The notes: generated by a model from the sequence alone, not told the origin. A stretch of 64,000 nt of DNA from Candidatus Rifleibacteriota bacterium (GCA_015232575.1 JADFZL010000026.1:13688-77687); one strand, 5' to 3'; shown: positions 3,557-54,011, numbered from the stretch's first letter. Made by a program: numbers and translations.

Positions 3557-3602
3557 CCCTCAAAACTCCACGGTAACTCGGTAAATGGTGCGCATGCCCG
3601 TG

Positions 3603-3756: not shown

Positions 3757-4242
3757 GTGTCATATATTGGTCAAGTAATTGAATTTAAAAACGATTCAGC
3801 TGTAATAGAGATAGGTGTTTTCAGTTCATGTAATAAATGCAGTGGATGCGGTGGTAAAAGCATTTTTGCAGGTTCGTCTGACAAGAAAAGAACTATTATC
3901 GCAAAGACCGGAAATCATTCGCTTCTGAAAGGTGACTTTGTTGAGGTTTCTCCAAAACCCGGCGCCCAATCAATGGCAGCACTTCTTGTATTTGGCATTC
4001 CATTATTCTTTTTCTTCATCGGACTTGTTTTCGGAACGTCTATACTTTCCATGTTCATTCAAATTGAGGCAAAAGACTGGATAAATCTTCTGCTTGGCTT
4101 TCAAGGATTGATAATGGGTTTTGCAGTATCTTTTCTGATAATAAAAATTGCCGGATTCGATTTTTTCATGCTTCAGGTAGAAAGAAAGATTTCCGAGGAA
4201 GAAATTAAAAACGCCGGGTCCTGTGATTTGGCTTCCCGCTAA
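3757..4242 (+). CDS. RseC/MucC-family protein (SoxR-reducing system / sigma-E positive regulator family)
   Basis: N-terminal G-V-x-E...CNKCSGCGG cysteine cluster followed by two hydrophobic helices, the typical RseC layout. Confidence 0.55.
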   Translation: MSYIGQVIEFKNDSAVIEIGVFSSCNKCSGCGGKSIFAGSSDKKRTIIAKTGNHSLLKGDFVEVSPKPGAQSMAALLVFGIPLFFFFIGLVFGTSILSMFIQIEAKDWINLLLGFQGLIMGFAVSFLIIKIAGFDFFMLQVERKISEEEIKNAGSCDLASR

Positions 4243-8538: not shown

Positions 8539-8639
8539 TATTCTGCAATTTCCTTAAACACTCTGAATTTTATGCCGCCTTCACCGCAACAATAAGACTA
8601 TTAATTTCCTATTACATTCTACCATTGAGAAACAAAAAA

Positions 8640-8676
8640 ACCAATAAAAAAACCCTCCGATTGCTCGGAGGGATCA
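8640..8676 (-). terminator. Rho-independent terminator of gene 8688-11069
   Basis: On the minus strand: CCCTCCG-agcaat-CGGAGGG (7-bp GC stem) followed by a T-run (TTTTTTTATTGGTTTTTTT). Confidence 0.75.
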
Positions 8677-8687
8677 AAAGTTTTAAA

Positions 8688-11069
8688 TTACTGACTCTGC
8701 TTTGTTTTCAGAGTATCATATTCTGCTTTGGCTTTATTCATTTCCTGTGCAACTTTCTGAGCGTCTTCCTGTCTGCCTTTTGCAATCATATCATTGTAGA
8801 GTCTGTAGAGTTCCTGATATTTTGCATAAGCAATCTGGACTTCTGAAGCATAAGTTCCAACAGGTTCTATTTCACTTGATGCCGAAACCTGCACATCCTG
8901 TATGTTTGCGGTTACTGGAATTTCGCTTGATCCTGCAACTGCACCAATTCCTACACTCTGACCCGGGTCAATTGTCGACTGATTATAAGGATTTGCTCCG
9001 GTAGGAGTCGCATAAGCCTGAGCTGGAATGCTGTCTTTGCCAAACAATTGCGCAATTTTATGAGCTGCCCAGTTTCCAACATAACCACCAACGATACCAC
9101 CTATTACTGTTCCTATCGGACCCAATGCAGAACCGAGTATTGCACCGGCTGTCGAACCAATTGTCTGTCCACCAACACCTATCCAGTCGATGTGTTTGAA
9201 AGCTTCTTTAATTGAGAATTTTCCATTTTTAAGATCACCGGCAAGATATGCTCCTACTGAACCACCAACGATTGAACCGAATGTCGGAGCAAGTGCTGAG
9301 AGAATACCACCTACAACCGGTACTGCTGTAAGGAATGGAACGAAGAATGATCCGGCAGCTGCACCAGTAACTGAACCAACAACACCACCTGCAAATTCTG
9401 CCGAACAAACAGTTTTTACAGCTTTCTTAAGACTTGGCTTTTCACCATTCATCATCTGAGTAACAAGATCAACACCAACAGTTATTCCAGCTGTCATAAG
9501 AAGATTCTTGGGGCTGAAACCTGACTTTACACTATCTTTAACATTCTGGAAACCCTGGTTAGTCATTGCCTTTCCAGCTTCATAACCCTGGCGTAATTTG
9601 CTGGATGTAACTTCTTTAAAACCAGGTTTTGATGAATCGCCCTGCTGTGAAGTCTGTGCTGGAACTCCATCGTCTCCAACCTGGCCATTCTGATTGCCCT
9701 GGTTGCCCTGGTTGTTCTGATTTCCTTGATTATTCTGATTACCCTGGCCTGGGTTTACACCATCATCACCGGTGTTCTGATTATACTGATTGCCCTGACC
9801 TGATTGGTTACCTTGTCCTGACTGGTTGCCTTGGCCACTCTGATTGCCCTGTCCTGACTGGTTGCCTTGACCAGATTGATTGCCCTGTCCGCTTTGATTT
9901 CCATGACCGGATTGGTTGCCCTGTCCGACCTGGCCTGACTGATTTCCTTGTCCTGACTGATTACCCTGCCCTGACTGATTTCCCTGCCCTGACTGATTTC
10001 CCTGTCCGGGAACATAACCATCGTCACCAGCAGTTCCCTGGTTATATTGGTTTCCCTGGCCTGATTGATTACCTTGGCCAGCTTGATTACCTTGGCCAGA
10101 CTGATTTCCCTGACCTGACTGGTTGCCTTGTCCGGCTTGATTACCCTGACCACTTTGATTGCCCTGTCCGGGAACATAACCATCATCAGTTGGGGTTGTG
10201 GTTGGTTTTGGTGTCTGACTTCCACGTCCAAAAAGTCTCGCAAAACGATCTTTGGCACTCTGTAAAGCATCGCCTATTTTACTACCGGTAGATTTTGCAA
10301 CTGTCTGACCAGACTGATTACCAGAATTAAAATTATCTCTTACATTCTGACCAAAGCTGCTGGCTTTATCACTAACTGCCTGCAAACCATCTTTTCCAGC
10401 CTGGTAAGTTTTATTACCAAAATTTTGTCCGCTTTCCCTGCCAGCGGTAAAACTATCTTTGATCTGGCTTCCATAGCCGCTGAGTTCATTCTTTATGAAA
10501 GAACCGGTGCTCTGATTTCCGCTCTGTCCAACGGTTGAAACTTTGCTGTCTGCTGCTGTAACGCCCTGAGAAACCTGAGCATTTTGTGTGGACTGGTTAA
10601 CCGGAACTGTTTGGCCACCTGCATTGGCATTATTGTACTGACCAGTCTGAACAGACTGATTTCCGGGAATATTCGCTTGACCGCCTGAATGATAAGGTGT
10701 TTGAACAGTCTGATTATTAGCTACTACACCTGCGCCCGACGGCGAAGTATTTACCTGAACTGGTTTCCCTGCACTTGTAGCTGCTGTAGTAGCGGCAGTT
10801 GATCCTGCAGAGGAATCGAAAAGAAGTTTGTAGTACTGACTCATTTCGAGTGCAATAGGTTTTCCATCAACATATCTTACGTTGTAATATGTTGTCCTGG
10901 TTCCAGTTTTAACAGGAACCCACTGTCCTGGGGTAATCTGGAAACTTGTACCATCAAGATTGGCAACAGTTGTACCCTGGTACGCCATCAATGGTGTTTC
11001 AAGAAGGAACCCAGCAATCAACACGATACACAACAACCTTGAAATTAGTCGAAGATGTTTTTGTTTCAT
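8688..11069 (-). CDS. secreted protein with Q/N-rich hexapeptide tandem repeats (GNQSGQ)n, glycine-zipper hydrophobic segments and a C-terminal coiled coil
   Basis: Signal peptide (LLCIVLIAGFLLETPLMAYQG). About 180 aa of GNQ(S/A)GQ repeats punctuated by DDGYVPGQ...GNQYNQ. GxxxG-rich segments (GGVVGSVTGAAAGSFF...; IGTVIGGIVGGYVGNWAA). Terminal helical heptads. Confidence 0.75.
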   Translation of the reverse strand: MKQKHLRLISRLLCIVLIAGFLLETPLMAYQGTTVANLDGTSFQITPGQWVPVKTGTRTTYYNVRYVDGKPIALEMSQYYKLLFDSSAGSTAATTAATSAGKPVQVNTSPSGAGVVANNQTVQTPYHSGGQANIPGNQSVQTGQYNNANAGGQTVPVNQSTQNAQVSQGVTAADSKVSTVGQSGNQSTGSFIKNELSGYGSQIKDSFTAGRESGQNFGNKTYQAGKDGLQAVSDKASSFGQNVRDNFNSGNQSGQTVAKSTGSKIGDALQSAKDRFARLFGRGSQTPKPTTTPTDDGYVPGQGNQSGQGNQAGQGNQSGQGNQSGQGNQAGQGNQSGQGNQYNQGTAGDDGYVPGQGNQSGQGNQSGQGNQSGQGNQSGQVGQGNQSGHGNQSGQGNQSGQGNQSGQGNQSGQGNQSGQGNQSGQGNQYNQNTGDDGVNPGQGNQNNQGNQNNQGNQGNQNGQVGDDGVPAQTSQQGDSSKPGFKEVTSSKLRQGYEAGKAMTNQGFQNVKDSVKSGFSPKNLLMTAGITVGVDLVTQMMNGEKPSLKKAVKTVCSAEFAGGVVGSVTGAAAGSFFVPFLTAVPVVGGILSALAPTFGSIVGGSVGAYLAGDLKNGKFSIKEAFKHIDWIGVGGQTIGSTAGAILGSALGPIGTVIGGIVGGYVGNWAAHKIAQLFGKDSIPAQAYATPTGANPYNQSTIDPGQSVGIGAVAGSSEIPVTANIQDVQVSASSEIEPVGTYASEVQIAYAKYQELYRLYNDMIAKGRQEDAQKVAQEMNKAKAEYDTLKTKQSQ
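9654..10187 (-). repeat. 18-bp tandem repeat array (encodes GNQSGQ), higher-order organised into three blocks
   Basis: The period-18 repetition CTGATTGCCCTGTCCTGA / CTGGTTGCCTTGACCAGA is visible directly in the DNA. The opposite-strand ORFs here are artefacts of the repeat. Confidence 0.85.
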
Positions 11070-22900: not shown

Positions 22901-23054
22901 CCAAAAAATACAGATACACGCAAACTCTTGTTATTGAGAAGAAAGTAAAAAATCGCACGCTATTAATTTTTATTGACAGAAAGCTGAAACTGAATTATTT
23001 TCAAACAGATATACTGTGTGGTTGGGAAGAATATTTCGGTTTACGGATGGAAAA

Positions 23055-25325
23055 ATGAATTTTTTTGCTGATTTGAAAATCAAGACCAGATTATTTGTAA
23101 CAATGGTCATTGTTTCGATAATTCTTTTCGGGTTAAACTGGTACACTACCGGAAGAGTTCGCGATGCTGTTAAACAACAGATTCCCCTTCAGATAAAAAC
23201 AGTACTAGATGAAGAAGTAAAATTAATTGATAGTTTCGTTTTAAGAAACACTGAAACGCTGAAATATCTTTCTAAATTAAGCGCAACAAGTCAGTTTTTC
23301 ACATGGAGTCATCTTAAACCTGATGCCGAAGAATCTATTAACCAGTGGCGCGAGTCGCTCGTTTCGCTGACAAAGAATACTCTAAACACCGACGATGTCT
23401 CGAACAGATTTCATGAGATTTTTTTCTTTGGAAAAGACAATCAGGTTCTTCTTCACATGGGCAGTAATGGCAAACTCCTCCCTAACAGAAAAAATTCGAT
23501 TGACCCGATTGTCCCATATATTTCTATCGCAAGTATGCAACCCGAGGACATTTTTATATCACCTGTTTTTACCGTCGATATTGATGAAACACCAACAAGA
23601 ATAATGTATCTTGGGAAAACAATTACATATAACGACGAATCAATAGGTTTGATACTGGCCGGAGTATTGCTTGATTCCGTCTTCAGCAACATTCCGGGAA
23701 TACTTGAGAGTCTTGGTGGCGACACTGCCGTATTTACCATGGAGCCTTCGCAGGCCGGAGCCTATATCTGTCATAAAAATTTCAATTACATTCTTGATCC
23801 GCAGAGTAATATATTTGCAAATCAGGATGAGCCATTTTTACGGCAACCGCTTGAAGATTCAAAAAAACTGATGAGTTCAAAAATCACTGAAGCCACTTCA
23901 CTGGTAAGCGAATTTCTACAGGGTGATTTTTCACATCTGCTGGTAGTTACAATGCCTATCAGATCGACTAAGTGGGTAATCATGAGCGTTGTCAATACAA
24001 AGGGTTCTCTGAATACCCTTGACAAAGCTCAGGACTTTTCTATGTTTCTGATTATTTTCGGATTATGCATAATGACAGCGATAAACATGCTTGTAATAAG
24101 AGGCGTTGTTCTTTCGATTCAGGCTGTTTCCAGCGGTCTGGAAGAAATATCCAGAGGAAGAGGAGATCTTACCCGTAGACTTGGAACAATAGGGCACGAC
24201 GAAGTTACTGAGGTTTCAGAGAGATTTAACCGCTTCATTGCCTATATTCAGAGATTTCTTCTTCAGATTCAGGACATCATCAACCGCCTTTTCTCAATGG
24301 CTAACCAGATTTCTGATGCAACTGGCCAGGAAAACGATTCGATTCTCAAGATCCTTGGTAATACACAGAGAATAACAAAAGCTTCAAGACAATCTTCTAT
24401 TACACTCGAAAAAACTGCTGCTGCAATTCAGGAAATTTCAGCAAATTCTCAACTTGTTGCAAAGCGATCCAACCGCGCATTTGAGGAGTCTGTACAAAAC
24501 AGACTTAAAGCAGCTCAAGGCATGGAATCAGTAAGAGAAGCCTCTTCAACAATAAAAGGGATTGAACGTGCAGTTGGTGATTCATCACGTGTTCTTGAAG
24601 AACTTCGCGCTCAATCAAGAAAAATTGGTAAAATTGTTCTAACCATAACCGCTATTTCAAGACAGACGAATCTGCTGGCTTTAAATGCCGCAATTGAAGC
24701 TGCAAGAGCTGGTGAGCAAGGCAAGGGATTTGTTGTCGTTGCTGAAAACGTAAAAAAACTTGCAGAACAAAGTGCCAAGGCAGCTGAGGAAATCGGTGCA
24801 CTCATTGGAGAAATTCAGCAGAAAACAAATAAAGCAGTTGAAGAAATGAGTCTTGGTAAGGAAAAGGTCCAGGAAGGAGTTGGAATTATCAACCGCGCCG
24901 GCCTTCTTCTGGATGAAATAGGAGTTGCATCAGAAAATGTTAACCTGATGGTTCAGGATATAAGTAAATCAGGTGCAGAACAGAGCAAAAACATCGAATC
25001 AGTAAGCATGGCTGTCGAAAACCTTTCACTTTCAATAAAAACAACTACAAGCGAAGTCGACGAAGTTCTGCATTCACTTCAAACACAGAAAGACAACATT
25101 CAGGATCTCGCAAAAATTACAAAGCATCTCACCATGATATCAGACGACTTGAAACGAATGCTTTCTAATTTCATTTTGCAGGCCGACTTCGAAGCAAATG
25201 ATTTCCATCACCGCGGACCCAGCAGCAAAAAGCCACCTGCACTCCCTGTTCCTGTAAAAACTGAGAATAAAAGTGAAGTTGCCGGTGAATCCGTAAACAA
25301 TACCCCGGAAGTATCACCAGTCTGA
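23055..25325 (+). CDS. methyl-accepting chemotaxis protein (TM - periplasmic sensor - TM - HAMP - MCP signalling domain)
   Basis: Highly conserved MCP hairpin ([34 protein letters not shown]). Two TM segments flank an about 300-aa sensor region. Confidence 0.85.
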
Positions 25326-25393: not shown

Positions 25394-27949
25394 CTAAAAA
25401 TCTATCGGATTTCCTTCCAGATGGATCTTTTTGAATTCCAGCATACTTTTTATTTCATCTCTGAGTGTTTCAACCGGAGCACCCTTCTGCCCTGTAAATG
25501 CATCAACGAGAGTCTCTCTGCAATCGTCGGCAAGGCATTCAGAAACCACCTCAAGAGTACGTGATTTAATCGATTCAAACCTGTAACTTCTGCTCTCAGG
25601 ATCTTCAACTGATTCAAGTTCTGATGCTGCAGCTACTAATTCACGCAGATTCTTGTTTTTAGAGGAAATAAGCCATTCAATTACAGCAAGATTAAATTCT
25701 GGAGTGTTTAGTGAAGAGTTTGAAGAATAAAGTCTGTCATTGTATAAAGGTTCACCAACACATGCAACTCTTCCTGTTCCAAGGTCTTCGCATGCCGCAA
25801 TGGGAACCGGTAAAACTGGAGTATGTGATGCATATACGTAAGCATCATCAAGTCCATCATTGCTCAGGTTATATGTGTCATCATCACCAACGGCAAGCAG
25901 GTGGAGATTTTTAGAAGCAATCAATCCCTCATTTTTTGCATTTATCAAAGTGCAACAACCCCTGACGAGCAACTTTGAAACACCCTTTGTAAGCGGAGAC
26001 GGGAAATTTTTGATAAAAATTCCCCAGAGATATCCAATATTATCTGTCGGATCAAAGACTTCGTCATCATTAAACCGAATCAAGCTTCCAGCCGCCTTCA
26101 GAATTTCATTTAAAAACGCAGGATTACTTTTATTTCCGAAATCTGCCTTGCAATACATAAGAAGCGAGCCGCCCGCCGCAACATAATTACGAAACAAAGT
26201 TATCTCATCTGGTGAAAATTGTTTTTCGGGGTGAGGAATAATAACTGCAAAGACATTTTTTAAAGTACTTGAAGCCAATGCGCGAGACTCTGAAATGCTT
26301 TTAAACTCCAAGCCAAGCTTCTTTCCAAGATCCATTTTCATTCCGGAAAATACACCCATGTAGTAATCTTTATTTCCGTGGGCACAATCGACCAAAATAA
26401 GCCTTGAATTGATTTCAACATTAATTGAAGAAGTGTCTATAATTTTAGAATCTTTCTTGAGAACTGCGATAATTTCAACTGTACCAACCCATGAAATATT
26501 CGTTTCAAAGTCGAATTTTGAAGCTTTTCCTGCAGGAATCGTTATTCCATCTTTACTTCCAATCATATTTTCTGGAGTCATCGTATCATGATAAACTTCA
26601 AGACTCAGCCCTGAAATATCCTGTGTCGCTGAGTTTTTAAGACAGGAAGTAACCAAAAAGGGATTTTTCACATATAAAGCTGATTTAGAAACAAATAGTT
26701 TGTGAATAACAGGAAGAGCATCACCTTCTGCTGAAGGAGTTTTAAATTCACCAGTATCACTAACCAGCTGTTCAACCTGTCTGGAGTCACGGGAAAAGAT
26801 TATATACTGATAATTTGTGTCAGGCTTTAATCCTGTAATTGTTATTGTATGAATTTTTGCGGAATTCTGTATCAACTTCGACGAAGAATAATCTGCAGGA
26901 CCATACTTTATCTGGGTATTCGAATCTTTGTTAGTTTTCCACTGAAGAGTAATAGAATTCTGTGTAAGAGAAATAACCTTTGGTCTTTCGACTATTTCGA
27001 GAGGACTCTGATTACTTGTAAATTTAACTGTTTCACCATCTGTAATTGTCTCGACAGTGCCATCCTGATCAGTTCTAAACACCCTGGTTTTATGGAAAGC
27101 ATATTTATCCATTGTTTCCTGGTTGGGATGGCCAAAATGATTATCTTTTCCAACGCTTATTACTGCGTATTCAGGCTTTACAACATCCATAAATGGAAAA
27201 CCCGAAGAAGTTTTACTTCCATGATGAGGGGACTTCAATATCGTACACTTTAGCTTTTCGCGATATTCCCTGACTATTTTCTCTTCGGTATTTTTTTCTG
27301 CATCTCCGCTGAAAAGATAACTTACTTTTCCGGCATTCATTTTAACAACCAATGACTCATCATTTGCGGAAAATTTTACTGCTGGCGGAAGAGTGTCGCT
27401 GGCATTACCCTCTGAAGGGCTTCTCCTCTCAAGTTCACTTACAAACAAAACTTCTGTCTGAACTCCAGAACCCCAATTCAGATCAGAACCTACTTTCGCA
27501 CGATTATACGGAATTTTCTTTTCGTTAATTATTGTCAGAAGTTTCTGATAAAGTTGAGAATCACCACTAAAAGATTCTCCGCCATCTCCACTAAGAAAGC
27601 CGCATGAATAAACGAACTCGCCTATTTCAATTTCCTGAATCAGATCAATAAAACCGCCGAAGTGATCACGATGGGGATGTGAAATCACTGCCATGTCAAT
27701 TTTTGCGATTCCGGCTTTTTTCAGATAAGGGATAAGAACCTTGGTTGCGGTATCAAATCTATCATCACCAGCATCAATTAAAATGGTTTTATCTTTGGTT
27801 CTAATAAGGATAGAGTCACCTTGTCCAACATCGAGAAAAGTTACTCTGGCAAGCGAATCAGATTGTGCAAAACATGAAAAGCAACAAAAAAATACTGTGA
27901 TTATAGCTGCGAAAAGAAATCTCTGAATCGACAGGCGTTTAGTTAACAT
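25394..27949 (-). CDS. secreted MBL-fold hydrolase (ComEC-type lactamase_B domain) with fibronectin-III-like domain, 851 aa
   Basis: Signal peptide. VTFLDVGQGDSILIR...ILIDAGDD...VISHPHRDHFGG. FN3-like SITLQWKTNKDSNTQIKYGP...NYQYII. Confidence 0.65.
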   Translation of the reverse strand: MLTKRLSIQRFLFAAIITVFFCCFSCFAQSDSLARVTFLDVGQGDSILIRTKDKTILIDAGDDRFDTATKVLIPYLKKAGIAKIDMAVISHPHRDHFGGFIDLIQEIEIGEFVYSCGFLSGDGGESFSGDSQLYQKLLTIINEKKIPYNRAKVGSDLNWGSGVQTEVLFVSELERRSPSEGNASDTLPPAVKFSANDESLVVKMNAGKVSYLFSGDAEKNTEEKIVREYREKLKCTILKSPHHGSKTSSGFPFMDVVKPEYAVISVGKDNHFGHPNQETMDKYAFHKTRVFRTDQDGTVETITDGETVKFTSNQSPLEIVERPKVISLTQNSITLQWKTNKDSNTQIKYGPADYSSSKLIQNSAKIHTITITGLKPDTNYQYIIFSRDSRQVEQLVSDTGEFKTPSAEGDALPVIHKLFVSKSALYVKNPFLVTSCLKNSATQDISGLSLEVYHDTMTPENMIGSKDGITIPAGKASKFDFETNISWVGTVEIIAVLKKDSKIIDTSSINVEINSRLILVDCAHGNKDYYMGVFSGMKMDLGKKLGLEFKSISESRALASSTLKNVFAVIIPHPEKQFSPDEITLFRNYVAAGGSLLMYCKADFGNKSNPAFLNEILKAAGSLIRFNDDEVFDPTDNIGYLWGIFIKNFPSPLTKGVSKLLVRGCCTLINAKNEGLIASKNLHLLAVGDDDTYNLSNDGLDDAYVYASHTPVLPVPIAACEDLGTGRVACVGEPLYNDRLYSSNSSLNTPEFNLAVIEWLISSKNKNLRELVAAASELESVEDPESRSYRFESIKSRTLEVVSECLADDCRETLVDAFTGQKGAPVETLRDEIKSMLEFKKIHLEGNPIDF

Positions 27950-28184
27950 TACTCTATACTCCTTAAATTTTACTCTATTTACTTAACTCTAAAAAATATG
28001 CAAAAACCACTTCATTGTGGATATTTTATCCAATACACCAAATCTCGGAATACTCCGATTAGTTCATTTTTAGATTGTATGAAATATTATTAATTCTGTC
28101 CAGTATGTACATTAAAAAAAAATGTTGATTAATACTGAAAACTTTGAGAGAATGTATCAAATCTAAATTCTGAAGAGGTATAAA

Positions 28185-29636
28185 ATGAGTGCAAATCTTT
28201 CTGATTTTTTGAAGGGAGTTTCTCTATTTTCCGCTCTTTCCGACGATCAAATCAAAACCGTCCTCGGACGGGTAGAAGTGGTAAAATATGTTCGAGACGC
28301 GGTTATTTGTAAAGAAGGCGAAAAAGCTGACTCAATGTTTGTTATCAAGTCCGGAATTGTCCAGATTTTTTGCGATGATGGACACAGCGGAAGAAAGATT
28401 CTCACACATTTAAAACTTGGAGAATATTTTGGTGAAATGTCTCTTCTTACAGATGATCCGCGGACTGCCAGTGCTAGCGCGCTGGCTGAAACAGAATTGA
28501 TAAAAATAAACAAAGATGACTTTCAGATGCTGCTTAAAAGCATTCCTGAAGTTGCTTTAACAATTATCAGAACTCTCTGCGACCGCCTTGCCAAAGCAAA
28601 TATCGGAACAAGTAATGCGAAGAAATTTAATGTCTTTGCAGTAATGGGTCCGGATACTTCTTCCGGAAAAAGCTTCTTTGCAAGAAATCTTGCTGCAGCA
28701 TTCAAAGAACTTCTTGAAAAGAGCATTTTACTTTATGATCCAAATCTGCGTGATGACAGAGTTGCAAAAAACCTTGGCATTCCTGCCCACTCAAGAATTA
28801 TTGATGAGCTTGTCGACAGAGAAAAAATAACTGACATTCACAAATACGTTGCTCAGTCACCAAGCGGCACTCTTACAATAGTTCCACAGGAAAATGGCCT
28901 TACCGACCTGAGATTAAAAGAATTCCATACTTTCTCCATAATGAAAACAGTATTAGAAAGTTTTGAATTCATAGTAATAGACAGCAGTTCAATGTTCACA
29001 AAGGTTACCAAAGAGATTGTACAATCCTGCGACAAAATTATATATCTGATATCCAGCAAAAATGTATCCATTGGTGGATTGATTGATCATTTTGAAGAAA
29101 CACGGCGAACATGGAAAGTTGACCCGTCGAAAGTGATATATGGAGTTAACCATCTGACTGATGATCCATCTAAAGAGAGTATTATTACTGAAAAAGACCG
29201 AAATTATATAAGATTTGAACTGCCATACGTGAAAGCTCTTGCCACCAGAAGAGAACCTGATGAAAAAGTTTTGATTCAGAGAGAATCTGATGCTCCCATG
29301 GTTAAAGCATTAAGACAAATAGCCGAAGATGTTCTTTTCGATCAGGAAATCAAGCTGTTCCTGCCACAATTTTCTGAAGATCCAACGAAGTCGTCTCTTG
29401 CCAAAAGATGGACTGAAAGTGGATTAAACGAGCTTTCTGCCGTAATAAGAAATCTCGCGATTACCGAGGGAGCAACCTGGGAAAATCAGAAAGGCATTTA
29501 TCTGCATGGAAAAACAGCTAAATGGTTGCTTAATACTATTGTGCCTGCAGTAGTAGATTTTGCAAATCGATTCAAACAGGAATTCAAAATTGAAAAAACC
29601 AGTATTTCAATAAACAGACAGGAAAGCATCATCTGA
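28185..29636 (+). CDS. cyclic-nucleotide-binding domain fused to a ParA/MinD-like P-loop ATPase-like domain
   Basis: CAP-family cNMP motif (GEYFGEMSLL...RTASA) at aa 1-130. Then VFAVMGPDTSSGKSF (Walker A-like) and FIVIDSSS (Walker B-like). Confidence 0.6.
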   Translation: MSANLSDFLKGVSLFSALSDDQIKTVLGRVEVVKYVRDAVICKEGEKADSMFVIKSGIVQIFCDDGHSGRKILTHLKLGEYFGEMSLLTDDPRTASASALAETELIKINKDDFQMLLKSIPEVALTIIRTLCDRLAKANIGTSNAKKFNVFAVMGPDTSSGKSFFARNLAAAFKELLEKSILLYDPNLRDDRVAKNLGIPAHSRIIDELVDREKITDIHKYVAQSPSGTLTIVPQENGLTDLRLKEFHTFSIMKTVLESFEFIVIDSSSMFTKVTKEIVQSCDKIIYLISSKNVSIGGLIDHFEETRRTWKVDPSKVIYGVNHLTDDPSKESIITEKDRNYIRFELPYVKALATRREPDEKVLIQRESDAPMVKALRQIAEDVLFDQEIKLFLPQFSEDPTKSSLAKRWTESGLNELSAVIRNLAITEGATWENQKGIYLHGKTAKWLLNTIVPAVVDFANRFKQEFKIEKTSISINRQESII

Positions 29637-29802: not shown

Positions 29803-31695
29803 TCAGAGTTTTCTTATCTTTTCAAGCCAGGTATTCAGCTCCAGAGAATTATTCTGAGTAGCTTCAAACTTAAGTAAATCGGTCAGTTTATTTTTCAGAG
29901 AATAGAGATTGTTTTTTCCTTCCCTGCCTGAGCTCTGATATATTTCAACAAAATCTTCAAATGGCCAGTACTCGTTATCTTCAATTGAGTATCTTACAGT
30001 CTCAAGAATGTCTTCTTCCTGATTATTCAAGTGGTCAATCTTTGCCGGAAGTTCTGCAGATTCAACTGATGCTGAAATATCAATATCCGGATTCATCCCT
30101 GGAATTCTGCTTAACAAGGGTTCGTTCTGAGAAGCAATCATTTCAACAACTGATCTCATAACCTTTTTATTCATTTTTGAACGTGCAACAACGACATTAG
30201 ATGAAGTCGATGGTCTGTTATTTTTTATTGTTACGGAAAAAGATATTGGAGCTGCAGGAGCACTTACGGCAAATGCCATTTCTATTTTTCCAACAGGACC
30301 ACGGTTTACAACTATTACCTGAAGGGAATCATGCTGTCCTGCAGGAGTTTTGAGAATCTGGTCTGTTTTACAATTATTCAATGTAAGCCATTCCATTTTT
30401 TTGGGAACCCTGTTTTTTGAATCCTGGAGTATTGCTGCTATTGCATAACTGTTTGAACTTTTACTCTGATCGTCGGCTTGCTGTTTTGCGCCCTGAAATG
30501 AAATCATTATTGGACCGGTAATTCCCTGAAGATTAAATCTGAAAGCCCTTGCTGACCACGGCTTGACAGAGCTTTTTACAGAAAAAGGCTGGCGATTAAA
30601 TATTCTTGTTGATGAAAGACGAATTCCAGGGTAAAAATTCTTATAACTGAACAAACCTTTTGCAAATGAAGGGTCATTAACAAAGCAGGCAACACAGAAA
30701 TTGCTGAAGATTCCCTGAAAAGAAATCGGAATATTTTTACTTTTAAACGCTTTGAGAATTCCTGCGGAACCATCGAGGTCACATTCAACAATGGTTCTAA
30801 GCAATGATTTTCTGCTGGCCTGGTCTGATGCAAGCTGAGTTGCCAGATAAAGACCATACATGTATACCTGCCCATAATTAGCTATCATCGTTGATTCGCT
30901 CCAGGCAAGCATATTGTTGTCGGAATTTCTCCAGAATGACAATACCTGCTGCGGATGGCCAAAACCGTTAAGAAAAGAAGCAAGCTGAGACATACTTTCG
31001 TTTATCCAGTTGTGTTCCATAGCATCATGATGCCAGTGAATCATGTGTTGAAGCTCATGAGCAACAACACTCATATATTCTTTCTTCTCTGGATTTGATG
31101 GATAAATGTCAAGATACAGCATTTCCCGCTGATTACTCATAGGTTCTTTTTCTTTTGAATATTCATCGCCGGCAAAAAAATAACCGGATGTATAATTTAA
31201 CTGTGATTTTGAAGGGTCGAAGCCGTCACGAATATCCAGAAAGAAAAGGCAAATCTTCGGATCACCGTCAATTCCGGGGTTCCATTCTTTTCCAAAATAT
31301 GAAGTAGTTGTCGGGTAAATATATTCATCAAACTGATAGACAATTTTATTCAAAACCTGTTCACTGAGGTTTTTTCCCTGTTCAAGATATATATAACAAT
31401 TTTTTCCAATTTTCTTTAAAACAGCCGGGATTTTTTCGAATTCCATCTTTCCAATGTTAAAGCAGTTGAACTGCTCGACATCACCAACTTGTTTTGGCCT
31501 TACATCAGCATTTTGAACGAAACCTTTGGTGCGCAGTTCAAATTCAGAAAGAGTTTCTTTAGCCTCTTCTTTAGCCAAACGCTTTACACGTTCTTCAAAA
31601 AGATGCGTTGCATCAAAGCCCTCGAAGGCGAAAGTTTGAACAACTATCACTGAGTAGAGAAAAAGGATAGTCAATATTTTATTATTCATTTTCAT
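29803..31695 (-). CDS. secreted zinc metallopeptidase (HEXXH)
   Basis: Signal peptide. VAHELQHMIHWHHD zinc-binding motif. 630 aa. Confidence 0.55.
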   Translation of the reverse strand: MKMNNKILTILFLYSVIVVQTFAFEGFDATHLFEERVKRLAKEEAKETLSEFELRTKGFVQNADVRPKQVGDVEQFNCFNIGKMEFEKIPAVLKKIGKNCYIYLEQGKNLSEQVLNKIVYQFDEYIYPTTTSYFGKEWNPGIDGDPKICLFFLDIRDGFDPSKSQLNYTSGYFFAGDEYSKEKEPMSNQREMLYLDIYPSNPEKKEYMSVVAHELQHMIHWHHDAMEHNWINESMSQLASFLNGFGHPQQVLSFWRNSDNNMLAWSESTMIANYGQVYMYGLYLATQLASDQASRKSLLRTIVECDLDGSAGILKAFKSKNIPISFQGIFSNFCVACFVNDPSFAKGLFSYKNFYPGIRLSSTRIFNRQPFSVKSSVKPWSARAFRFNLQGITGPIMISFQGAKQQADDQSKSSNSYAIAAILQDSKNRVPKKMEWLTLNNCKTDQILKTPAGQHDSLQVIVVNRGPVGKIEMAFAVSAPAAPISFSVTIKNNRPSTSSNVVVARSKMNKKVMRSVVEMIASQNEPLLSRIPGMNPDIDISASVESAELPAKIDHLNNQEEDILETVRYSIEDNEYWPFEDFVEIYQSSGREGKNNLYSLKNKLTDLLKFEATQNNSLELNTWLEKIRKL

Positions 31696-31901: not shown

Positions 31902-32591
31902 TTGACTAGAGAATTGAGTCATGCTAAGATTCCCCACATGTCAACAAAAATTCGAATGATTCTTCTTGGGATTGCTGTACTGATACTGTTACTTGTTATT
32001 GCCGGAGTTGCTTACAGGGCAAGTAAAAAAGGCCATACAGAAGGAGATGGCAGCAAACAAACTGAAACAGCGGATGCGCATGGAACAGCAACAGCTCCAC
32101 AAGGAACAGGAGAGACTCCAGCATCTCACGGTTCTGAAACTGCCAGCAGCCATGGAAGCACTGCTGCTCCGACTGAAACAAAGGAACCTTCTTCTTCACA
32201 CGGATCAACCAAAGAGCCTGCCAACGCTAAGCCTGCAGATGCACACGGCTCTGCTCCAGCAGGAAAAACTCCTGCTGCTGGTGATACATCACGTTTTTCG
32301 CTTGGTGATTTCACAGCACCAGCCAGAGATGAAGAAGTGCATTATATTAAAATTGAGGTCGAGCTTGAATTTACTGGTGACCTGGAGAAAGAATTAACCA
32401 GAAGAAAAAATGAATTGCGCGATGCTGTAACGACAATAATAATGAAACTGACTATTCAACGAGCAAAAGAAGATTATATTGACAGATTTCTCCATCAGGA
32501 AATCCAGAACAAATTGAATGAAATTCTTGGAACCAGCGGCACAAAAAACCGGATAATCAGAATCTACATTCCTTCCTTTCTGGTAAACTAA
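31902..32591 (+). CDS. fliL: flagellar basal-body-associated protein FliL with His/Gly/Ser-rich insertion
   Basis: TM helix. C-terminal FliL domain (FSLGDFTAPAR...IKIEVELEF...RIIRIYIPSFLVN). The start may be ATG 31941. Confidence 0.75.
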   Translation: MTRELSHAKIPHMSTKIRMILLGIAVLILLLVIAGVAYRASKKGHTEGDGSKQTETADAHGTATAPQGTGETPASHGSETASSHGSTAAPTETKEPSSSHGSTKEPANAKPADAHGSAPAGKTPAAGDTSRFSLGDFTAPARDEEVHYIKIEVELEFTGDLEKELTRRKNELRDAVTTIIMKLTIQRAKEDYIDRFLHQEIQNKLNEILGTSGTKNRIIRIYIPSFLVN

Positions 32592-32670
32592 TCATCTGCA
32601 TCAGTCGATAATCCTTATAACAAGTTTTTTGTTAATCAAAGTATCATAAATTTGAGAGTTTGCTGGAAAT

Positions 32671-33714
32671 ATGGTTGAAACCTTATCACAGAATGAAATA
32701 GATGCTCTGCTTTCTGCGCTGAACGCAGGCGGAAGTCCTGCTCCAGATGCGGGTGGCGGTGGCGGAGGCGGCGGTGGAGCCGGTTTTTCTGGAAAAGGTG
32801 AAGCAGAGCGACCACAAAAAAAAGGAAAACTGTATGATTTCAAAAGACAGACAAAGTTTTCCAAAGAACAGATGGGTACAATCCAGCTTATCCATGAAAC
32901 ATTTGCCCGACTTGTTGGAACATATTTATCAACTGAACTGAGAGCCTATGCTCAGGCAAACATCGTTTCAGTTGATCAGTTGACATTCGAAGAACTTCTT
33001 CGTTCAATTTATTCGCCAACTTTTATTACAGGCTTCAGATCAGAAAAACTTGATGGAAAAGCACTTATAGATATAAATTTAAATGTAGTATTCACAATTC
33101 TGGACAGATTACTTGGTGGAAATGGTACACCGCTGGGCACTCTCAGGCAGCTGACAGAAGTAGAAAATCAGATAATGCAGAGAATAATGACACGTATTCT
33201 TGCCTTGCTCAGAGAAGCCTGGATAAACGTCGTAGACTTAACTCCCAGTATTGAATTTATCGATTCAAATCCGCAGTTTGCACAAATTGTCCCACCCGGA
33301 GACATGGTACTCGCTGTTGTATCAGAAATAAAAATACACGATGTAACGGGCCTGATGAATCTCTGCGTTCCATATAATACGATAGAATCGGTTGCATCAA
33401 AGCTGAACGCTGCCTCGTGGTTTGCAGCCATAAGAAAAGAACCGCTTTCGACAAACATCAAAGCTATTACTCATCAGGTAAGAAAAATTGATCTTCCATT
33501 TGTGGTTGAGCTTGGCACTGCAACACTTTCGCTGAATGACATCCTGAATCTACATCGCGGCGACATTTTAGTAACCGATCGTCTTGTTAAGCAGGATCTT
33601 GATATCAAAGTTGGAAATCTTATCAAATACAGGGGCCGTCCTGGTGTAATGGGAAAGAAAATGGCGGTCTCAATCACTCAGGTCATTGAAAATCCCGAGG
33701 AGGAGTTACCGTGA
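32671..33714 (+). CDS. fliM: flagellar motor switch protein FliM
   Basis: N-terminal [10 protein letters not shown] CheY-binding peptide and FliM middle domain. Contains a poly-Gly insert ([12 protein letters not shown]). Confidence 0.85.
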
Positions 33715-35153
33715 CAGATTTATTGTCTCAGGAAGAAATTGATGCTCTATTAAGAAGTGGTGGAAGTATGGGAGGCGGAGAAGAAACAACACCGCCGCCA
33801 TCGGCTCCGCCACCCTCTTCGCCGCCTCCACCTCCAAGACAGCCCCCTGTTTCCGCTTCGCCGCGTCCGCCGCAGCAGGCGGCTTCGCAAGCATCTCATG
33901 GTGGAGCAAGCAGGTCCCCTGCAGGTTCAGATGTATCTGCAGTTCTTTCTCCTGAAGAAAAAGAAAAGCTGACAGAAGTCGCAAAGCTTTCAATGGGTGC
34001 TACATCTTCTGTTCTTCAAATGCTCCTGAACAGGCAAGTTGATCTTTCCCTTTCCCAGATGCGAATTATGACCCAGGATGACCTTGCATCTGAGTTCCAG
34101 GGAAACGATATGATAATTGCAAAAATTTCATACGTTGAAGGTTTTGCTGGAAATTCATATCTATTGCTTGAAAAACCGGTCTCAGCAATCATCGGCGACC
34201 TGATGATGGGTGGTGATGGTGCAAATCCAGAATTTCAGGAAATGCACAAATCTGCCGTCGGCGAAATGATGAACCAGATGATGGGGAAGACTACTACGAC
34301 CCTGTCAGAAATTTTTAAAAAACGTGTTGACATTAACCCACCTAACGTGGATTTAATAAATTTCCAATCAGCCCCTCCGCAGATGGAAGACTTCAAGCCT
34401 GGTGCAAAATTTCTACGAATGGGATATCATCTCAAGGTTGGTCAGGAAATAAATTCTGAGATGATTCAGCTTCTACCGCTTGATTTTGCTAAAAGCATGG
34501 CCTCTGATTTAGCTCAACCATCGAAACCAGTAGCAAAAAAGCCAGTTCCCCCACCCCCTCCAATGAGCTCTGGCGCACCTGAACAACAGCAACCAGCTCA
34601 AATGATGCCTCCTGGCGGTATGCAAGGAATGCCCGGGATGGGCGGAATGCCTGGAATGGGTGGTATGCCTGGAATGGGCGGTATGCCTGGAATGGGCGGT
34701 ATGCCCGGCATGGGAGGTATGCCTGGAATGGGTGGTATGCCCGGCATGGGCGGTATGCCTGGAATGGGTGGCATGCCTGGAATGGGCGGTATGCCCGGAA
34801 TGGGTGGCATGCCTGGAATGGGCGGTATGCCCGGAATGCAGGCGGCGAACCCCGCGGAATTTGGAATGTTTCAGATGCCAGGCGGAATTGGCCTGCAATC
34901 GAACATTGATCTTCTGCTTGATGTTCCTCTTCAAATAACAGTTGAATTGGGACGAACAAAAATGTTAATAAAAGATGTACTTGAATTAGGTATAGGTTCT
35001 GTTGTAGAGTTAAATAAATTGGCAGGTGAGGCAGTTGAAGTTCTGGTTAATAATAAACTGATTGCCAAGGGCGAAGTTGTTGTTATTGACGAGAATTTTG
35101 CCGTAAGAATAACAAGTATTGTTAATCCGCAAGATCGATTGCAGGCTATCTGA
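33711..35153 (+). CDS. fliY: flagellar motor switch protein FliY (CheY-binding peptide - CheC-like domain - FliN/SpoA domain) with Pro-rich and (MPGMGG)n inserts
   Basis: [10 protein letters not shown] at the N-terminus. CheC-like middle domain. C-terminal FliN domain ([33 protein letters not shown]). GTG start overlapping the fliM stop. Confidence 0.8.
34617..34850 (+). repeat. 18-bp tandem repeat x about 12 (ATGCCYGGNATGGGNGGN, encoding MPGMGG)
   Basis: ATGCC recurs every 18 bp from 34629 to 34827. Confidence 0.85.
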
Positions 35154-35173
35154 ACAGGAGGATACCCAATCCG

Positions 35174-35536
35174 ATGGGGAAAACAGTTTTAATAGTTGAT
35201 GACGCAGCATTCATGAGAATGATGATACGCGACATCCTGTCAAAAAATGGCTATGAGGTTCTTGGTGAGGCTCAGACCGGCAAGGAAGCAGTTGAGTTGT
35301 ATAAAAAGCTTAAGCCGGATTTGGTTACCATGGATATTACCATGCCGGAGATGAATGGCATTGACGCGGTTAAAGCAATAAAAAGCCTTGATCCCGGTGC
35401 CAGAATCGTAATGTGCAGTGCCATGGGGCAGCAGGCAATGGTAATTGATGCTATTCAGGCAGGTGCAAGAGATTTTGTCGTCAAACCATTCCAGCCAAAT
35501 CGGGTTATTGAAGCAGTTCAAAAAGCTCTTCGCTGA
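35174..35536 (+). CDS. cheY: chemotaxis response regulator CheY
   Basis: Single REC domain, 120 aa, LIVDDAAFMR...DITMPEMNG...KPF. Confidence 0.85.
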   Translation: MGKTVLIVDDAAFMRMMIRDILSKNGYEVLGEAQTGKEAVELYKKLKPDLVTMDITMPEMNGIDAVKAIKSLDPGARIVMCSAMGQQAMVIDAIQAGARDFVVKPFQPNRVIEAVQKALR

Positions 35537-35591
35537 AAACTGTATCATTAACTTACGGAAAACTGATTTTTACCTCAGAAAAAAACGACCA

Positions 35592-36323
35592 GTGAGGTTG
35601 TTTTTTTTCGGGGCGTTTTTTGTTTTCCTTTGTTTCTCGTCCTTTGCTCAAAATCTTTCGTCCTCTTCAAAACCTCTGAAAGCCAAAGAACAGGGAAATA
35701 AAAGCAAAGAAGTCGAACAGACTGAATTTGTCTCTAGTGTCACGTCCGCTGTAATAGAACCAAAAAAAGACTCTCTGGAAGCTTCTTCAGAAAAAGAACT
35801 TGATAAAAAAAAATCATTCCCTGCTGAAAATGATTTGATTTTTCCTGCAACTGATTCAGCAAACCTCAGAAAGATTCCCGAGTCTGACCCTCTTTCAACT
35901 GCGGTGAACATACTTTGTTCTTTCGCATTTATCATTACTCTTATGCTTGCATTATCATGGTATCTGCAGAACAAGGGTGTATGCAAAGGCAGCGATTTTG
36001 GAAGAACCCTCTGTGTTATTCCGCTTGATCACAAACACTTCATTTATATTGTCAACATTGTTGGAAAAATACTTGTCCTTGGAGTTACGGATCATCAGAT
36101 TAATCTTCTCTGCGAAATAACAGATCAATCTGCCATTGATGAATTGAATATAAAATCTTCAGATACTTCCAACAAAGTTGGTGTTGAACGAATTTTCAGT
36201 ATTTTCAGCAATGCAAAAAAGAATTTATCTGGAAATAATGAACCATTTTCAGAAATCATGAGACACGTAAACATTGCTAAAAACCAGATTGACGATATAA
36301 AATCAAGAAAAGAATCTAATTGA
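35592..36323 (+). CDS. fliO: flagellar biosynthesis protein FliO/FliZ
   Basis: Signal-like N-terminus, TM helix, then LVLGVTDHQINLLCEI, which matches the FliO signature (E. coli LVLGVTAGQINLLHKL). GTG start chosen to avoid the overlap with cheY in the track ORF. Confidence 0.7.
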   Translation: MRLFFFGAFFVFLCFSSFAQNLSSSSKPLKAKEQGNKSKEVEQTEFVSSVTSAVIEPKKDSLEASSEKELDKKKSFPAENDLIFPATDSANLRKIPESDPLSTAVNILCSFAFIITLMLALSWYLQNKGVCKGSDFGRTLCVIPLDHKHFIYIVNIVGKILVLGVTDHQINLLCEITDQSAIDELNIKSSDTSNKVGVERIFSIFSNAKKNLSGNNEPFSEIMRHVNIAKNQIDDIKSRKESN

Positions 36324-47258: not shown

Positions 47259-48593
47259 TTGAGAATAGCGTTAATAAAGCCTTCGTTTGGTGAGACATTT
47301 GGCAAACGTTACAGTTCCATGGCAATGATGGAACCACTGACGTTTGCCGTCCTTGCCGGTTTAACTCCGGCAAAGCATGAACTATTCTTTTTTGATGAGC
47401 GCATCGAAAATATCGACTTTGACAAAGGCTATGATCTGGCGGCAATTTCAGTTGAAACTTTTTCTGCAAGACGTTCTTCGCAGATTTACAATGAATTCCG
47501 AAAACGAAACATTCCCGTTATTTCGGGCGGTTTTCATCCAACTCTCATCCCTGAGGAAGTCACTTCATACTCAGATGTTGTTGCGATAGGCGAAGCAGAG
47601 AATATCTGGCCTCAAATTCTTGCTGACGCAGAAAACAATAAGCTTCAGAAAATATACCGCTCACAGAATTTGTCTTCCCAATTTTCTGTTGTTACGGACA
47701 AGTCTGTTTTTAACGGGAAGAAGTACCTTCCGATTTCATTAGTACAATTTAATCAAGGCTGCATACACAATTGTGATTTCTGTTCAGTACGACAATTCTA
47801 TTCAGGGAAAACCAGACAGCGTGCTATCGATGAGGTTTTAAGAGAAATTTCTGCACAGAAAAAGAATTTTATTTTTTTTGTTGACGACAACATAATTTCC
47901 CATAAAGATGCTATAAAAAAGCTCCTCAGAGAACTCAAGGGAATGAATCTGAGGTGGACAGCCCAGTCAAGTCTTGCTGTTGCAGAAGACGATGAATTGC
48001 TGCAACTGGTAGTTGAAAGCGGCTGTTTTTCACTGATTATTGGCCTGGAATCACTGAACCCGATGAACCTTGAAAAGATGAATAAAGGCTGGGCAAAGCA
48101 CTTTGGCGGATACAAAGGTGCATTGGATAAGCTTAAAGATCACGGTATAATGGTTTATGGAACTTTCGTTTTTGGTTATGATTTTGATGATATTGATTGT
48201 TTTTCCAGAACTGCTGATTTTGCAATTGAAAGAAAACTGTTTATGGCCAATTTTAATATATTGCAGCCTTTTCCAGGGACACCGGTTTATGAAACACTTA
48301 AGAGTCAGAATCGTCTTATTTTTGAAAAATGGTGGCTCGATAAGCGCTATAGTTGGAATCAGACAGCATTCATTCCTCTCAGAATGACACCTGAGCAATT
48401 ATCTGAGGGCGTTACAAGTGTACGCAAAAAGTTTAATTCGATATCCGGAATTTTCCAGCGGGCAATTGATCTGAAAGCAAATTTAAGTGATCTTTTCAGT
48501 GCGATGATATATTTTACAGGAAACGTTGTATCGAGGCATGATATCCACAGAAAAACCAATCTGAAACTCGGATTCAAAGATGAGAAAATATAA
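47259..48593 (+). CDS. B12-binding-domain radical SAM protein (paralog 1)
   Basis: N-terminal cobalamin-binding-like domain and CxxxCxxC (CIHNCDFCSV). TTG start. Confidence 0.7.
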   Translation: MRIALIKPSFGETFGKRYSSMAMMEPLTFAVLAGLTPAKHELFFFDERIENIDFDKGYDLAAISVETFSARRSSQIYNEFRKRNIPVISGGFHPTLIPEEVTSYSDVVAIGEAENIWPQILADAENNKLQKIYRSQNLSSQFSVVTDKSVFNGKKYLPISLVQFNQGCIHNCDFCSVRQFYSGKTRQRAIDEVLREISAQKKNFIFFVDDNIISHKDAIKKLLRELKGMNLRWTAQSSLAVAEDDELLQLVVESGCFSLIIGLESLNPMNLEKMNKGWAKHFGGYKGALDKLKDHGIMVYGTFVFGYDFDDIDCFSRTADFAIERKLFMANFNILQPFPGTPVYETLKSQNRLIFEKWWLDKRYSWNQTAFIPLRMTPEQLSEGVTSVRKKFNSISGIFQRAIDLKANLSDLFSAMIYFTGNVVSRHDIHRKTNLKLGFKDEKI

Positions 48594-48596
48594 AAT

Positions 48597-49958
48597 ATGA
48601 AAGATAAAATCAGAGTCGTTTTCATAAAACCCAATATGGGCCTGGTTTACGGAAAGCCATACTACGACCGTGGACGCATGGAACCGCTTACTTTTGCTGT
48701 CTTGGCAGGAATGCTTTCTGATGATGTTGAATGCATCCTTTATGATGATCGGTTTGAAAAAATTTATTATGACAAACCGGCTGATCTGGTTGCCATAAAT
48801 GTTGAAATTTATACTGCGAGAAGAGCTTATGAAATTTCGGCTGAATTCAGGAAACGTGGAGTAAAAGTCATTCTTGGCGGATATCACGTTTCAATGCTTC
48901 CAGAAGAAGCGATGGAACATGCTGACGCTATAATGACAGGCGACGCTGAACAGATATGGCCACAAGTGGTTAGCGATGCTGCTGCCGGTAATCTGAAAAA
49001 GATGTACAATGGAGTTTTCCCGCCAGTTTTATCTGGAATAAAAACCAGATGGGAAATTTTTGAAAACAAATCTTATCTTCCGATCAGGTTGACACAGTTC
49101 AGCAGAGGCTGCAGTAATCACTGCAAGTTTTGTGCAACAGGTACCATATACAAAAGAACTCATGTCTGCCGGCCTCCAGAGGAAGTTGTTGCAGAACTTG
49201 CAGTTCAGAAAAACAAGTTTGTTTTCTTTGTTGATGACAATATTATTGCTGAACCTGAAACAGCAAAAGAGCTTTTCAGAAGACTTATACCGTTGAAAAA
49301 AAGGTGGATAGGACAGGCAAGTCTGAATTTCACAAACGACCCTGAATTGATGGATCTCATGCAAAGAAGCGGGTGTGCCGGTCTTGTAATCGGATTTGAA
49401 ACTGTGAATCCGGAAAACCTTGCACTTATGGAAAAAAACTGCAATCTTCAACTTGAAAGCTATGATGACGCCATTGAAAAAACACGCAAAATGGGACTTA
49501 TGCTGTGGGCAGCTTTTTTGATCGGGTACAACCATGACGATATAAACAGTATACGAAAAACTGTACAATGGGCTATAGACCGAAAGTTCTGTTTTGCTGC
49601 ATTTAATATCCTCAGCCCATACCCGAGCACTGTCGTTTACGATGAAATGAAAGCTCAAAACAGGCTTTTGTATGATAAATGGTGGCTCGACGACCGTTAT
49701 CATTTTGGAGATGCCGTTTTCAAACCGACAAGAATGACACCGGATGAACTAACGGAAGCTTGTTTCTGGGCTCGCAGGCGTTTCAACAACCCACTGACAA
49801 TTTTAAAAAGAGTTCTTGATTTCCAGACAAACGCCAAAGACCTCTGGAGCATTGCAACATATTTTGCATACAATCCACTATTCCGCCGCGAATTGTTCAA
49901 AAAACACGGAATGATACTCGGATACCGTAATAAACACACGAGTCACCAGGGCGAGTAA
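48597..49958 (+). CDS. B12-binding-domain radical SAM protein (paralog 2)
   Basis: Collinear similarity to the upstream gene (MEPLTFAVLAG, CSNHCKFCATG, KWWLDDRY). Confidence 0.7.
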   Translation: MKDKIRVVFIKPNMGLVYGKPYYDRGRMEPLTFAVLAGMLSDDVECILYDDRFEKIYYDKPADLVAINVEIYTARRAYEISAEFRKRGVKVILGGYHVSMLPEEAMEHADAIMTGDAEQIWPQVVSDAAAGNLKKMYNGVFPPVLSGIKTRWEIFENKSYLPIRLTQFSRGCSNHCKFCATGTIYKRTHVCRPPEEVVAELAVQKNKFVFFVDDNIIAEPETAKELFRRLIPLKKRWIGQASLNFTNDPELMDLMQRSGCAGLVIGFETVNPENLALMEKNCNLQLESYDDAIEKTRKMGLMLWAAFLIGYNHDDINSIRKTVQWAIDRKFCFAAFNILSPYPSTVVYDEMKAQNRLLYDKWWLDDRYHFGDAVFKPTRMTPDELTEACFWARRRFNNPLTILKRVLDFQTNAKDLWSIATYFAYNPLFRRELFKKHGMILGYRNKHTSHQGE

Positions 49959-53989: not shown

Positions 53990-54011
53990 TTTTCAGAATT
54001 TTCTAAAAAAC

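Follow-up and report, generated by a model that had tools for sequence, protein, structure and literature searches.

A conserved Riflebacteria protein family that joins a predicted cyclic-nucleotide sensor to a degenerate MinD/CpaE-type domain

TadZ/CpaE proteins are ATP-binding dimers that act as assembly or localization factors (PMC13170226; bioRxiv 10.64898/2026.07.08.737194) and carry a Walker-A-like motif of the form K/RGGxGxS/T (bioRxiv 10.64898/2026.07.08.737194). They combine an N-terminal receiver-like (REC) domain with an atypical ATPase domain of the MinD type. Members of the ParA/MinD family form ATP-sandwich homodimers and run a partner-stimulated ATPase cycle (PMC11407121). Fusions of a REC sensor to a CpaE/TadZ module are thus already known as localization or assembly factors; a version that binds cyclic nucleotides (cNMPs) is apparently undescribed in the searchable literature. 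Our literature searches returned no description of a fusion between a cNMP-binding (CNB) domain and a ParA/MinD/CpaE domain, an absence that is no proof of novelty. The outputs of bacterial cAMP and cGMP described so far are transcription factors, channels, acetyltransferases, and defense effectors.

Here, we analyzed a gene that encodes such a fusion within a 64,000-nt stretch of Candidatus Rifleibacteriota DNA (hereafter, the window; G+C content of ∼39%). Our preferred reading, to which we assign a probability of about 50%, is that the product would be a lineage-specific cytoplasmic cNMP receptor, whose output would reside not in a DNA-binding domain but in a degenerate MinD/CpaE-type domain followed by a ferredoxin-like one.

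Architecture and relatives of the fusion protein

The gene is a complete ORF on the plus strand (28185..29636), with the same boundaries as in the initial annotation. It runs from an ATG start to a TGA stop, encodes 483 amino acids, and is preceded by a Shine-Dalgarno-like AAGAGG read from the sequence (28173..28178, plus strand; 6 nt before the ATG). Promoter and terminator counts around the gene equaled the shuffle expectation, and Rfam and tRNA scans yielded no matches in the window. An identical protein (P0001) from a Candidatus Riflebacteria MAG is annotated as "cyclic nucleotide-binding domain-containing protein," which places the window in an Ozemobacteraceae-like Riflebacteria genome. 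The predicted structure (mean pLDDT of 86; pTM of 0.66, with an uncertain relative arrangement of the domains) consists of three folded parts, which correspond to residues 1-139, 149 to ∼385, and ∼386-483. In an alignment of 56 family members, the mean majority-residue frequency was highest in the SIMIBI core (0.83), followed by the CNB domain (0.79), the C-terminal domain (0.62), and the linker, which scored lowest (0.60). The protein is a conserved three-part molecule made of a cNMP sensor, a degenerate MinD/ParA-type domain, and a small extra domain. Pfam, alignment, and structure modeling recovered both domains claimed initially, i.e., a CAP-type cNMP-binding domain and a SIMIBI ParA/MinD-like P-loop domain; their order stands as described, but the third, ferredoxin-like domain had been overlooked.

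The CAP/CRP-type CNB domain (28185..28601, plus strand) spans residues 1-139, including a long amphipathic C-helix at residues 121-139. It matches the Pfam model cNMP_binding (PF00027) over residues 33-118 with 80.8 bits (cutoff, 27.5; E=7.2e-23), and it was the only part of the protein matched to PDB chains in a single-sequence search. Both the FGE...R[ST]A cassette and the eight-stranded beta-barrel with C-helix that define such domains were found. In the phosphate-binding cassette FGEMSLLTDDPRTAS (28428..28472, plus strand; residues 82-96), F82, G83, E84, R93, and A95 are invariant among the 56 members. Residues of the FGE...R[ST]A cassette contact the ribose and the cyclic phosphate. The CRP-like C-helix runs into the SIMIBI domain via a flexible linker (28602..28628, plus strand; residues 140-148), which is the least conserved segment and is modeled with low confidence (low-confidence stretch at residues 137-147, with pLDDT of <50 at 137-144).

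The C-terminal domain (29340..29633, plus strand; residues 386-483) has a ferredoxin-like beta-alpha-beta-beta-alpha-beta(-beta) topology. Its conserved residues are Q387, P394, R408, W409, E416, G442, W447, N450, K464, E466, F467, and N477. In the predicted structure, the protein ends in a beta-strand of this folded domain, no C-terminal amphipathic membrane-targeting helix was found, and the last 30 residues contain no Tyr.

Full-length orthologs form ∼57 clusters at 90% identity, are 45 to 69% identical, and almost all measure 481 to 483 aa. Their sources are all Riflebacteria/Ozemobacteraceae or metagenomes and, among the matches listed, at least six Riflebacteria genomes serving as GTDB species representatives encode one. 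The 100 nearest representatives outside the family include 52 with an N-terminal receiver domain and a SIMIBI domain starting near residue 140, 13 with a CNB domain, and a single one with a Wzz domain. The predicted REC-SIMIBI layout of those 52 proteins, the closest sequence relatives, is CpaE/TadZ-like. With CNB instead of REC, replaced catalytic residues, and an added output domain, the window protein seems to be a derived branch of the sensor-fused CpaE-like proteins.

Using local HMMs and motif extraction, we sorted the CNB-SIMIBI fusions into classes A and B. Class A (465 to 490 aa) comprises this family and P0059, P0089, P0090, P0092, P0094, P0095, P0097, P0099, and P0104, and shares with the window protein all three domains, a non-Lys (usually acidic) residue at the signature position, a DPx switch I, and a DSSS Walker B; the C-terminal domain was detected by HMM in P0089, P0090, P0092, and P0095. 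Even the P-loop Lys is replaced by Arg or Gln in several class A members. Unlike the window protein, class B fusions (410 to 450 aa; P0113, P0155, P0202, and others, together with a Rifleibacterium amylolyticum protein encoded at locus L020) keep the canonical KGGxGK[ST] and DLDLxFGD motifs and lack the C-terminal domain. In a third group, a degenerate SIMIBI domain is followed by a patatin lipase (P0060, P0183, L014 from Omnitrophota, and L015 from Moduliflexus). Genes of this group (L014, 2180-4237; L015, 7953-10022) encode proteins of ∼680 to 700 aa with CNB, SIMIBI, and C-terminal patatin-like phospholipase domains and a strongly degenerate Walker A (e.g., SNRRHTGCT or SHQRQIGRT), apparently another uncharacterized cNMP-linked type. 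Near the distant class A relative P0059 (UBA6191 contig), locus L003 encodes a multidomain FHA-GAF-class III cyclase-PilZ protein (1682-3829), along with Ser/Thr kinases and VWA proteins; among the loci examined, only this one has a nucleotide cyclase no more than 10 kb away.

A degenerate nucleotide site in the SIMIBI domain

The SIMIBI nucleotide-binding domain of the MinD/ParA/CpaE type (28629..29339, plus strand; residues 149-385) has the MinD/ParA fold and was modeled as a real P-loop alpha/beta domain, folded separately after the linker. Two Pfam families proposed at the outset as a check on it, AAA_31 (20.4 bits versus a threshold of 27) and CbiA (16.1 versus 25.4), stayed below their gathering thresholds, in contrast to cNMP_binding. 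The region downstream of the CNB domain matches the P-loop NTPase fold, and the protein did not prove to belong to a characterized family of unrelated function. Matches beyond the CNB domain required a PDB profile search built on residues 141-483, in which FleN/FlhG was the best solved sequence relative (E=4.6e-5). HMM alignment to FleN paired GPDTSSGKS with GGKGGVGKT, LLYDPNLRDD with LLDADLGLAN, and FIVIDSSS with LVVDTAAG.

Within Walker A (GPDTSSGKS; 28647..28673, plus strand; residues 155-163), G161 and K162 are invariant among the 56 members and S163 is conserved in at least 90% of them. The GG pair is replaced by Thr-Ser, and the position of the signature lysine is taken by Asp157 (at least 90% conserved), which aligns with the signature Lys of FleN, as expected from the absence of this deviant-Walker-A residue reported in the initial annotation. 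Switch I/Walker A' (ILLYDPNLRD; 28725..28754, plus strand; residues 181-190) contains the invariant D185, P186, and N187. This triplet aligns with DAD of FleN, and N187 stands where MinD, Soj, FlhG, and FleN have the catalytic Asp; the two deposited FleN variants 8pb9 and 8p53 read DAAL, not DADL, at the equivalent position. Equivalent substitutions in MinD (D40A), Soj (D44A), and FlhG (D60A) reportedly abolish hydrolysis. Walker B (EFIVIDSSS; 28965..28991, plus strand; residues 261-269) has invariant D266, S267, and S268, and further invariant motifs of the SIMIBI domain are family specific (RLKEFHT, DSSS..TKVTKE, and SSKNVS). As the most conserved part of the protein, with invariant motifs of its own, the SIMIBI domain is under strong selection for a property other than the canonical ATPase cycle. 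The phosphate- and Mg-ligating residues K162, S163, D185, and D266 are retained but the signature Lys and the catalytic Asp are gone, so that the domain probably binds a nucleotide and hydrolyzes it slowly or not at all. Slow hydrolysis could still be possible with Asn in the catalytic position, and true ATPase activity would be in keeping with the invariant Lys162 and Ser163 of the core family.

Similarity to BY-kinases raises the alternative of a cNMP-regulated BY-kinase-like autokinase or protein kinase. The top curated-model matches, both partial, were indeed the BY-kinase model TIGR03018 (NCBIfam; residues 131-295; E=2.8e-11; 43.1 bits) and EpsG TIGR03029 (E=6e-9; 35.4 bits), and BceF, Etk, CapAB, and Wzc appeared in the PDB profile search. 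The signature Lys is likewise absent from BY-kinases, and the Walker A' of the window protein, hhhhDxNxR, is close to hhhhDxDxR. However, the two scores fall far under the respective cutoffs (230.65 and 313.8 bits), the second Asp of Walker A' is an Asn (LLYDPNLR), and Walker B reads DSSS, not DxxP. Moreover, the last 30 residues, which form part of a folded domain, hold no tyrosine cluster, Wzz occurs in 1 of the 100 nearest relatives versus 52 for REC, and no polysaccharide-export genes adjoin the gene. We thus regard kinase activity as quite unlikely.

The Walker A sequence also presumably shares its spacing and Asp-Thr positions with the dethiobiotin synthetase P-loop, GTDTEVGKT. An active enzyme with a BioD/CobQ-type P-loop (GxDTxxGK[ST]) under cNMP control, e.g., one resembling ATP-dependent ligases or amidotransferases, would fit the strong conservation of unusual motifs close to the active site, which could then form a substrate-binding site. 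Neither sequence nor structure searches back the P-loop likeness, and we consider such an enzyme very unlikely.

Genomic context in the window and at ortholog loci

The CNB-SIMIBI gene is a single-gene unit, with both adjoining genes on the opposite strand. The divergent neighbor (25394-27949, minus strand) encodes a metallo-beta-lactamase (MBL)/fn3 protein of 851 aa with a signal-peptide-like N terminus, an fn3/purple-acid-phosphatase-N-like domain, and a GIFT/ABC_transp_aux-like region. The convergent downstream neighbor (29803-31695, minus strand) encodes a 630-aa HExxH protein (motif VVAHELQHMIHW) with a signal-peptide-like N terminus. This protein matches neither Pfam nor PADLOC models and may be a secreted but as yet unclassified metalloprotease; its gene sits in the slot held by an M48 peptidase at most ortholog loci. 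As described initially, the window contains an MCP gene (23016-25325, plus strand) 3 kb upstream and a fliL-fliM-fliY-cheY-fliO cluster (31902-36323, plus strand) 2.3 kb downstream, the latter separated from the CNB-SIMIBI gene by the opposite-strand gene. The FliL homolog (31902-32591, plus strand; weak "Mucin" Pfam match) bears an unusually long low-complexity insert (approximately residues 40-125), rich in Ala/Thr/Ser/Gly/His, between its N-terminal membrane segment and the FliL domain. From fliM on, the genes form a compact flagellar switch cluster (32671-36323, plus strand), in which the fliY-type gene encodes 480 aa with a CheC-like and a FliN C-terminal domain, and a single-domain CheY-like receiver (35174-35536) is overlapped by a long FliO-like ORF (292 aa); an unrelated DUF362/4Fe-4S gene and mutS follow directly. 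Elsewhere in the window, three regions (5243-11069, minus strand; 51794-57050 and 57019-59876, plus strand) hold several large lineage-specific ORFs without a Pfam match at E<=1e-5 (816, 289, 793, 731, 906, 180, 252, and 359 aa), and two adjoining radical-SAM genes (47259-49958, plus strand; 444 and 453 aa, the second with a B12-binding domain) suggest a tandem pair of related enzymes. The window contains no flhA, flhF, or flhG, no nucleotide cyclase or CNB-SIMIBI paralog, and no ComM, TPR, or M48 matches.

We compared this arrangement with 13 ortholog loci (L001, L002, L004-L008, L010, L011, and L086-L089). None has the window's flanking genes next to the ortholog, and none has an adjoining flagellar or chemotaxis gene, the nearest one being a CheA gene 8 kb off at L005; tad genes flank the gene neither in the window nor at any of the 13 loci. 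The recurrent order is instead pta/ackA, TPR, ComM(YifB), CNB-SIMIBI, M48 peptidase (convergent), Mur ligase, and M16 peptidase. A Mg-chelatase-like gene of the ComM/YifB type is found no more than 5 kb away at 8/13 loci (including L004, L005, L007, L008, L087, L088, and L089), in most cases directly upstream in the same orientation after a gap of 55 to 115 bp, and an M48 peptidase adjoins the ortholog in ∼8/13. This recurrent block is a housekeeping block that has been rearranged in the window genome. Gene context indicates no target, nor a specifically flagellar one.

These data bear directly on the function offered by the initial annotation, namely, the positioning or counting of flagella or chemoreceptor arrays by an active, cNMP-gated ParA/MinD/FlhG-like ATPase. 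The MinD/ParA/FlhG-type fold, FleN/FlhG as the best solved relative, and the nearby MCP and fliL-fliM-fliY-cheY-fliO genes would all suit this role, and FlhG binds C-ring proteins of the FliM/FliY type (PMC11407121). On the other hand, Asp157 and Asn187 replace the signature Lys and the catalytic Asp, the C terminus is folded into a separate domain instead of a membrane-targeting helix, both adjoining genes are on the opposite strand, and no ParB/MinE/FlhF-like partner gene adjoins. Since the window's flanking genes do not recur beside the ortholog at the 13 loci, nor does any flagellar gene adjoin it there, flagellar proximity is a one-genome coincidence. On the basis of this comparison, we reject a flagellar or chemotaxis link derived from gene context, and we consider the proposed positioning ATPase unlikely.

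The neighborhood of the orthologs is also relevant to a second alternative, which concerns the target and is compatible with the preferred receptor reading, i.e., that the protein is a cNMP-responsive regulator or adaptor for DNA uptake or natural transformation. In Haemophilus and Vibrio, competence is known to be controlled by cAMP-CRP, and ComM acts as a helicase in transformation. Besides ComM proximity at 8 of the 13 loci, the distant CNB-SIMIBI gene of R. amylolyticum (L020) diverges from a cluster with ComEC, within which a homolog of the MBL part of the window's 851-aa neighbor is encoded (L020 2423-3289; 32% identity over 314 aa; E=4.5e-38). These findings hint at a DNA-uptake link, although plain synteny explains them equally well. 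As ComM belongs to the larger housekeeping block, its proximity may simply reflect ancestral gene order. In addition, ComM is missing from the window, the MBL neighbor is a secreted multidomain protein and not ComEC, and the sample is small. A role in DNA uptake is thus improbable as matters stand. A TPR partner was considered and discarded; the Rifleibacterium relative is followed after 5 bp by a TPR gene, but this gene and the TPR neighbor of the orthologs are not homologous.

A defense-system identity was also considered and rejected, since the PADLOC matches span the generic CNB domain alone (residues 23-153). Neither the window nor any ortholog locus has an adjoining cyclase, the protein lacks a toxic effector domain (TIR or TM), and the gene is conserved, single copy, and vertically inherited (45 to 69% identity at constant length), with housekeeping synteny and no defense island. 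An anti-phage role as a Pycsar-like effector that responds to a cyclic (pyrimidine) nucleotide is thus extremely unlikely. A gene of the PycTM (Pycsar transmembrane effector) family is located ∼8 kb downstream of the closest ortholog (L005, 19564-20094).

Proposed mechanism and comparison with known systems

The protein is probably a signaling switch or adaptor, and under the preferred receptor reading it would operate in four steps. Judging from the residues, cAMP or cGMP would first bind the N-terminal CNB domain at its intact phosphate-binding cassette. By similarity to the CRP/FNR fold, the long amphipathic C-helix would then dimerize and pass the ligand-induced movement on through the linker; the paired helices would hold two SIMIBI domains together, and their ligand-driven movement would alter how these domains are juxtaposed. 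Having Asp157 in place of the signature lysine needed to close the ATP sandwich dimer, and Asn187 in place of the catalytic Asp, the SIMIBI domain would bind a nucleotide, barely hydrolyze it, and work as a conformational switch or adaptor, much as reported for TadZ/CpaE, with a dimer geometry set by the CNB dimer and cNMP, not by an ATPase cycle. Finally, our guess for the output step is that the conserved surface motifs RLKEFHT, TKVTKE, and SSKNVS would engage a partner together with the ferredoxin-like domain. We infer cNMP binding, nucleotide binding, nonhydrolysis, and dimerization alike from residues and predicted folds. More speculatively, and with considerable doubt, the protein may be the founding member of an undescribed receptor class, in which a CRP-like cNMP-binding dimer directly controls a nonhydrolyzing MinD/CpaE switch and cNMP would replace the dimerization cycle driven by ATP and the signature lysine. 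Such a receptor would be a coincidence detector of cNMP and ATP, signaling via the ferredoxin-like output to a machine, possibly for DNA uptake (given the ComM/ComEC neighborhood) or an envelope apparatus.

Features that define ParA/MinD proper, FlhG, TadZ/CpaE, and the BY-kinases were each looked for and found lacking, which excludes the protein from all four groups. Compared with ParA/MinD, it lacks the deviant Walker A KGGxxGK[ST], the catalytic Asp of the switch-I DxD, and the C-terminal matrix-binding amphipathic helix. FlhG/FleN are typically encoded in a flagellar cluster next to flhF; here, the window has no flhF and none of the 13 loci has an adjoining flagellar gene. Unlike FlhG/FleN and MinD, the window protein has additional N- and C-terminal domains and its orthologs lie outside flagellar or division clusters. 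With BY-kinases (Wzc, Etk, CapB, and EpsG) it shares the SIMIBI branch, the missing signature lysine, and a Walker A'-like hhhhDxNxR, but not the Tyr cluster, the DxxP Walker B, a Wzz/transmembrane activator, or a polysaccharide locus. It is not a CRP/FNR-type transcription factor because it has no HTH; SIMIBI and ferredoxin-like domains stand in for the winged-helix DNA-binding domain of those receptors. In comparison with CpaE/TadZ, the sensor is a CNB domain, switch I reads DPN instead of DLDLQFGD, a ferredoxin-like C-terminal domain is added, and there is neither a tad/cpa locus (window and 13 loci) nor a C-terminal amphipathic helix. Walker A reads GPDTSSGKS instead of K/RGGxGxS/T and retains the canonical P-loop Lys while lacking the signature Lys, whereas TadZ shows the opposite pattern. 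The practical impact of these findings is limited by an uncultured host phylum and the lack of a confident target. The reciprocal degeneration relative to TadZ, under strong purifying selection, would offer a useful natural experiment on how ParA/MinD folds are repurposed as noncatalytic switches and, were the mechanism true, bacterial cAMP/cGMP would gain a new class of output, the direct control of a SIMIBI-type protein switch. In its proposed mode of action, the protein most resembles a CRP-type cNMP receptor fused to a CpaE/TadZ-like module.
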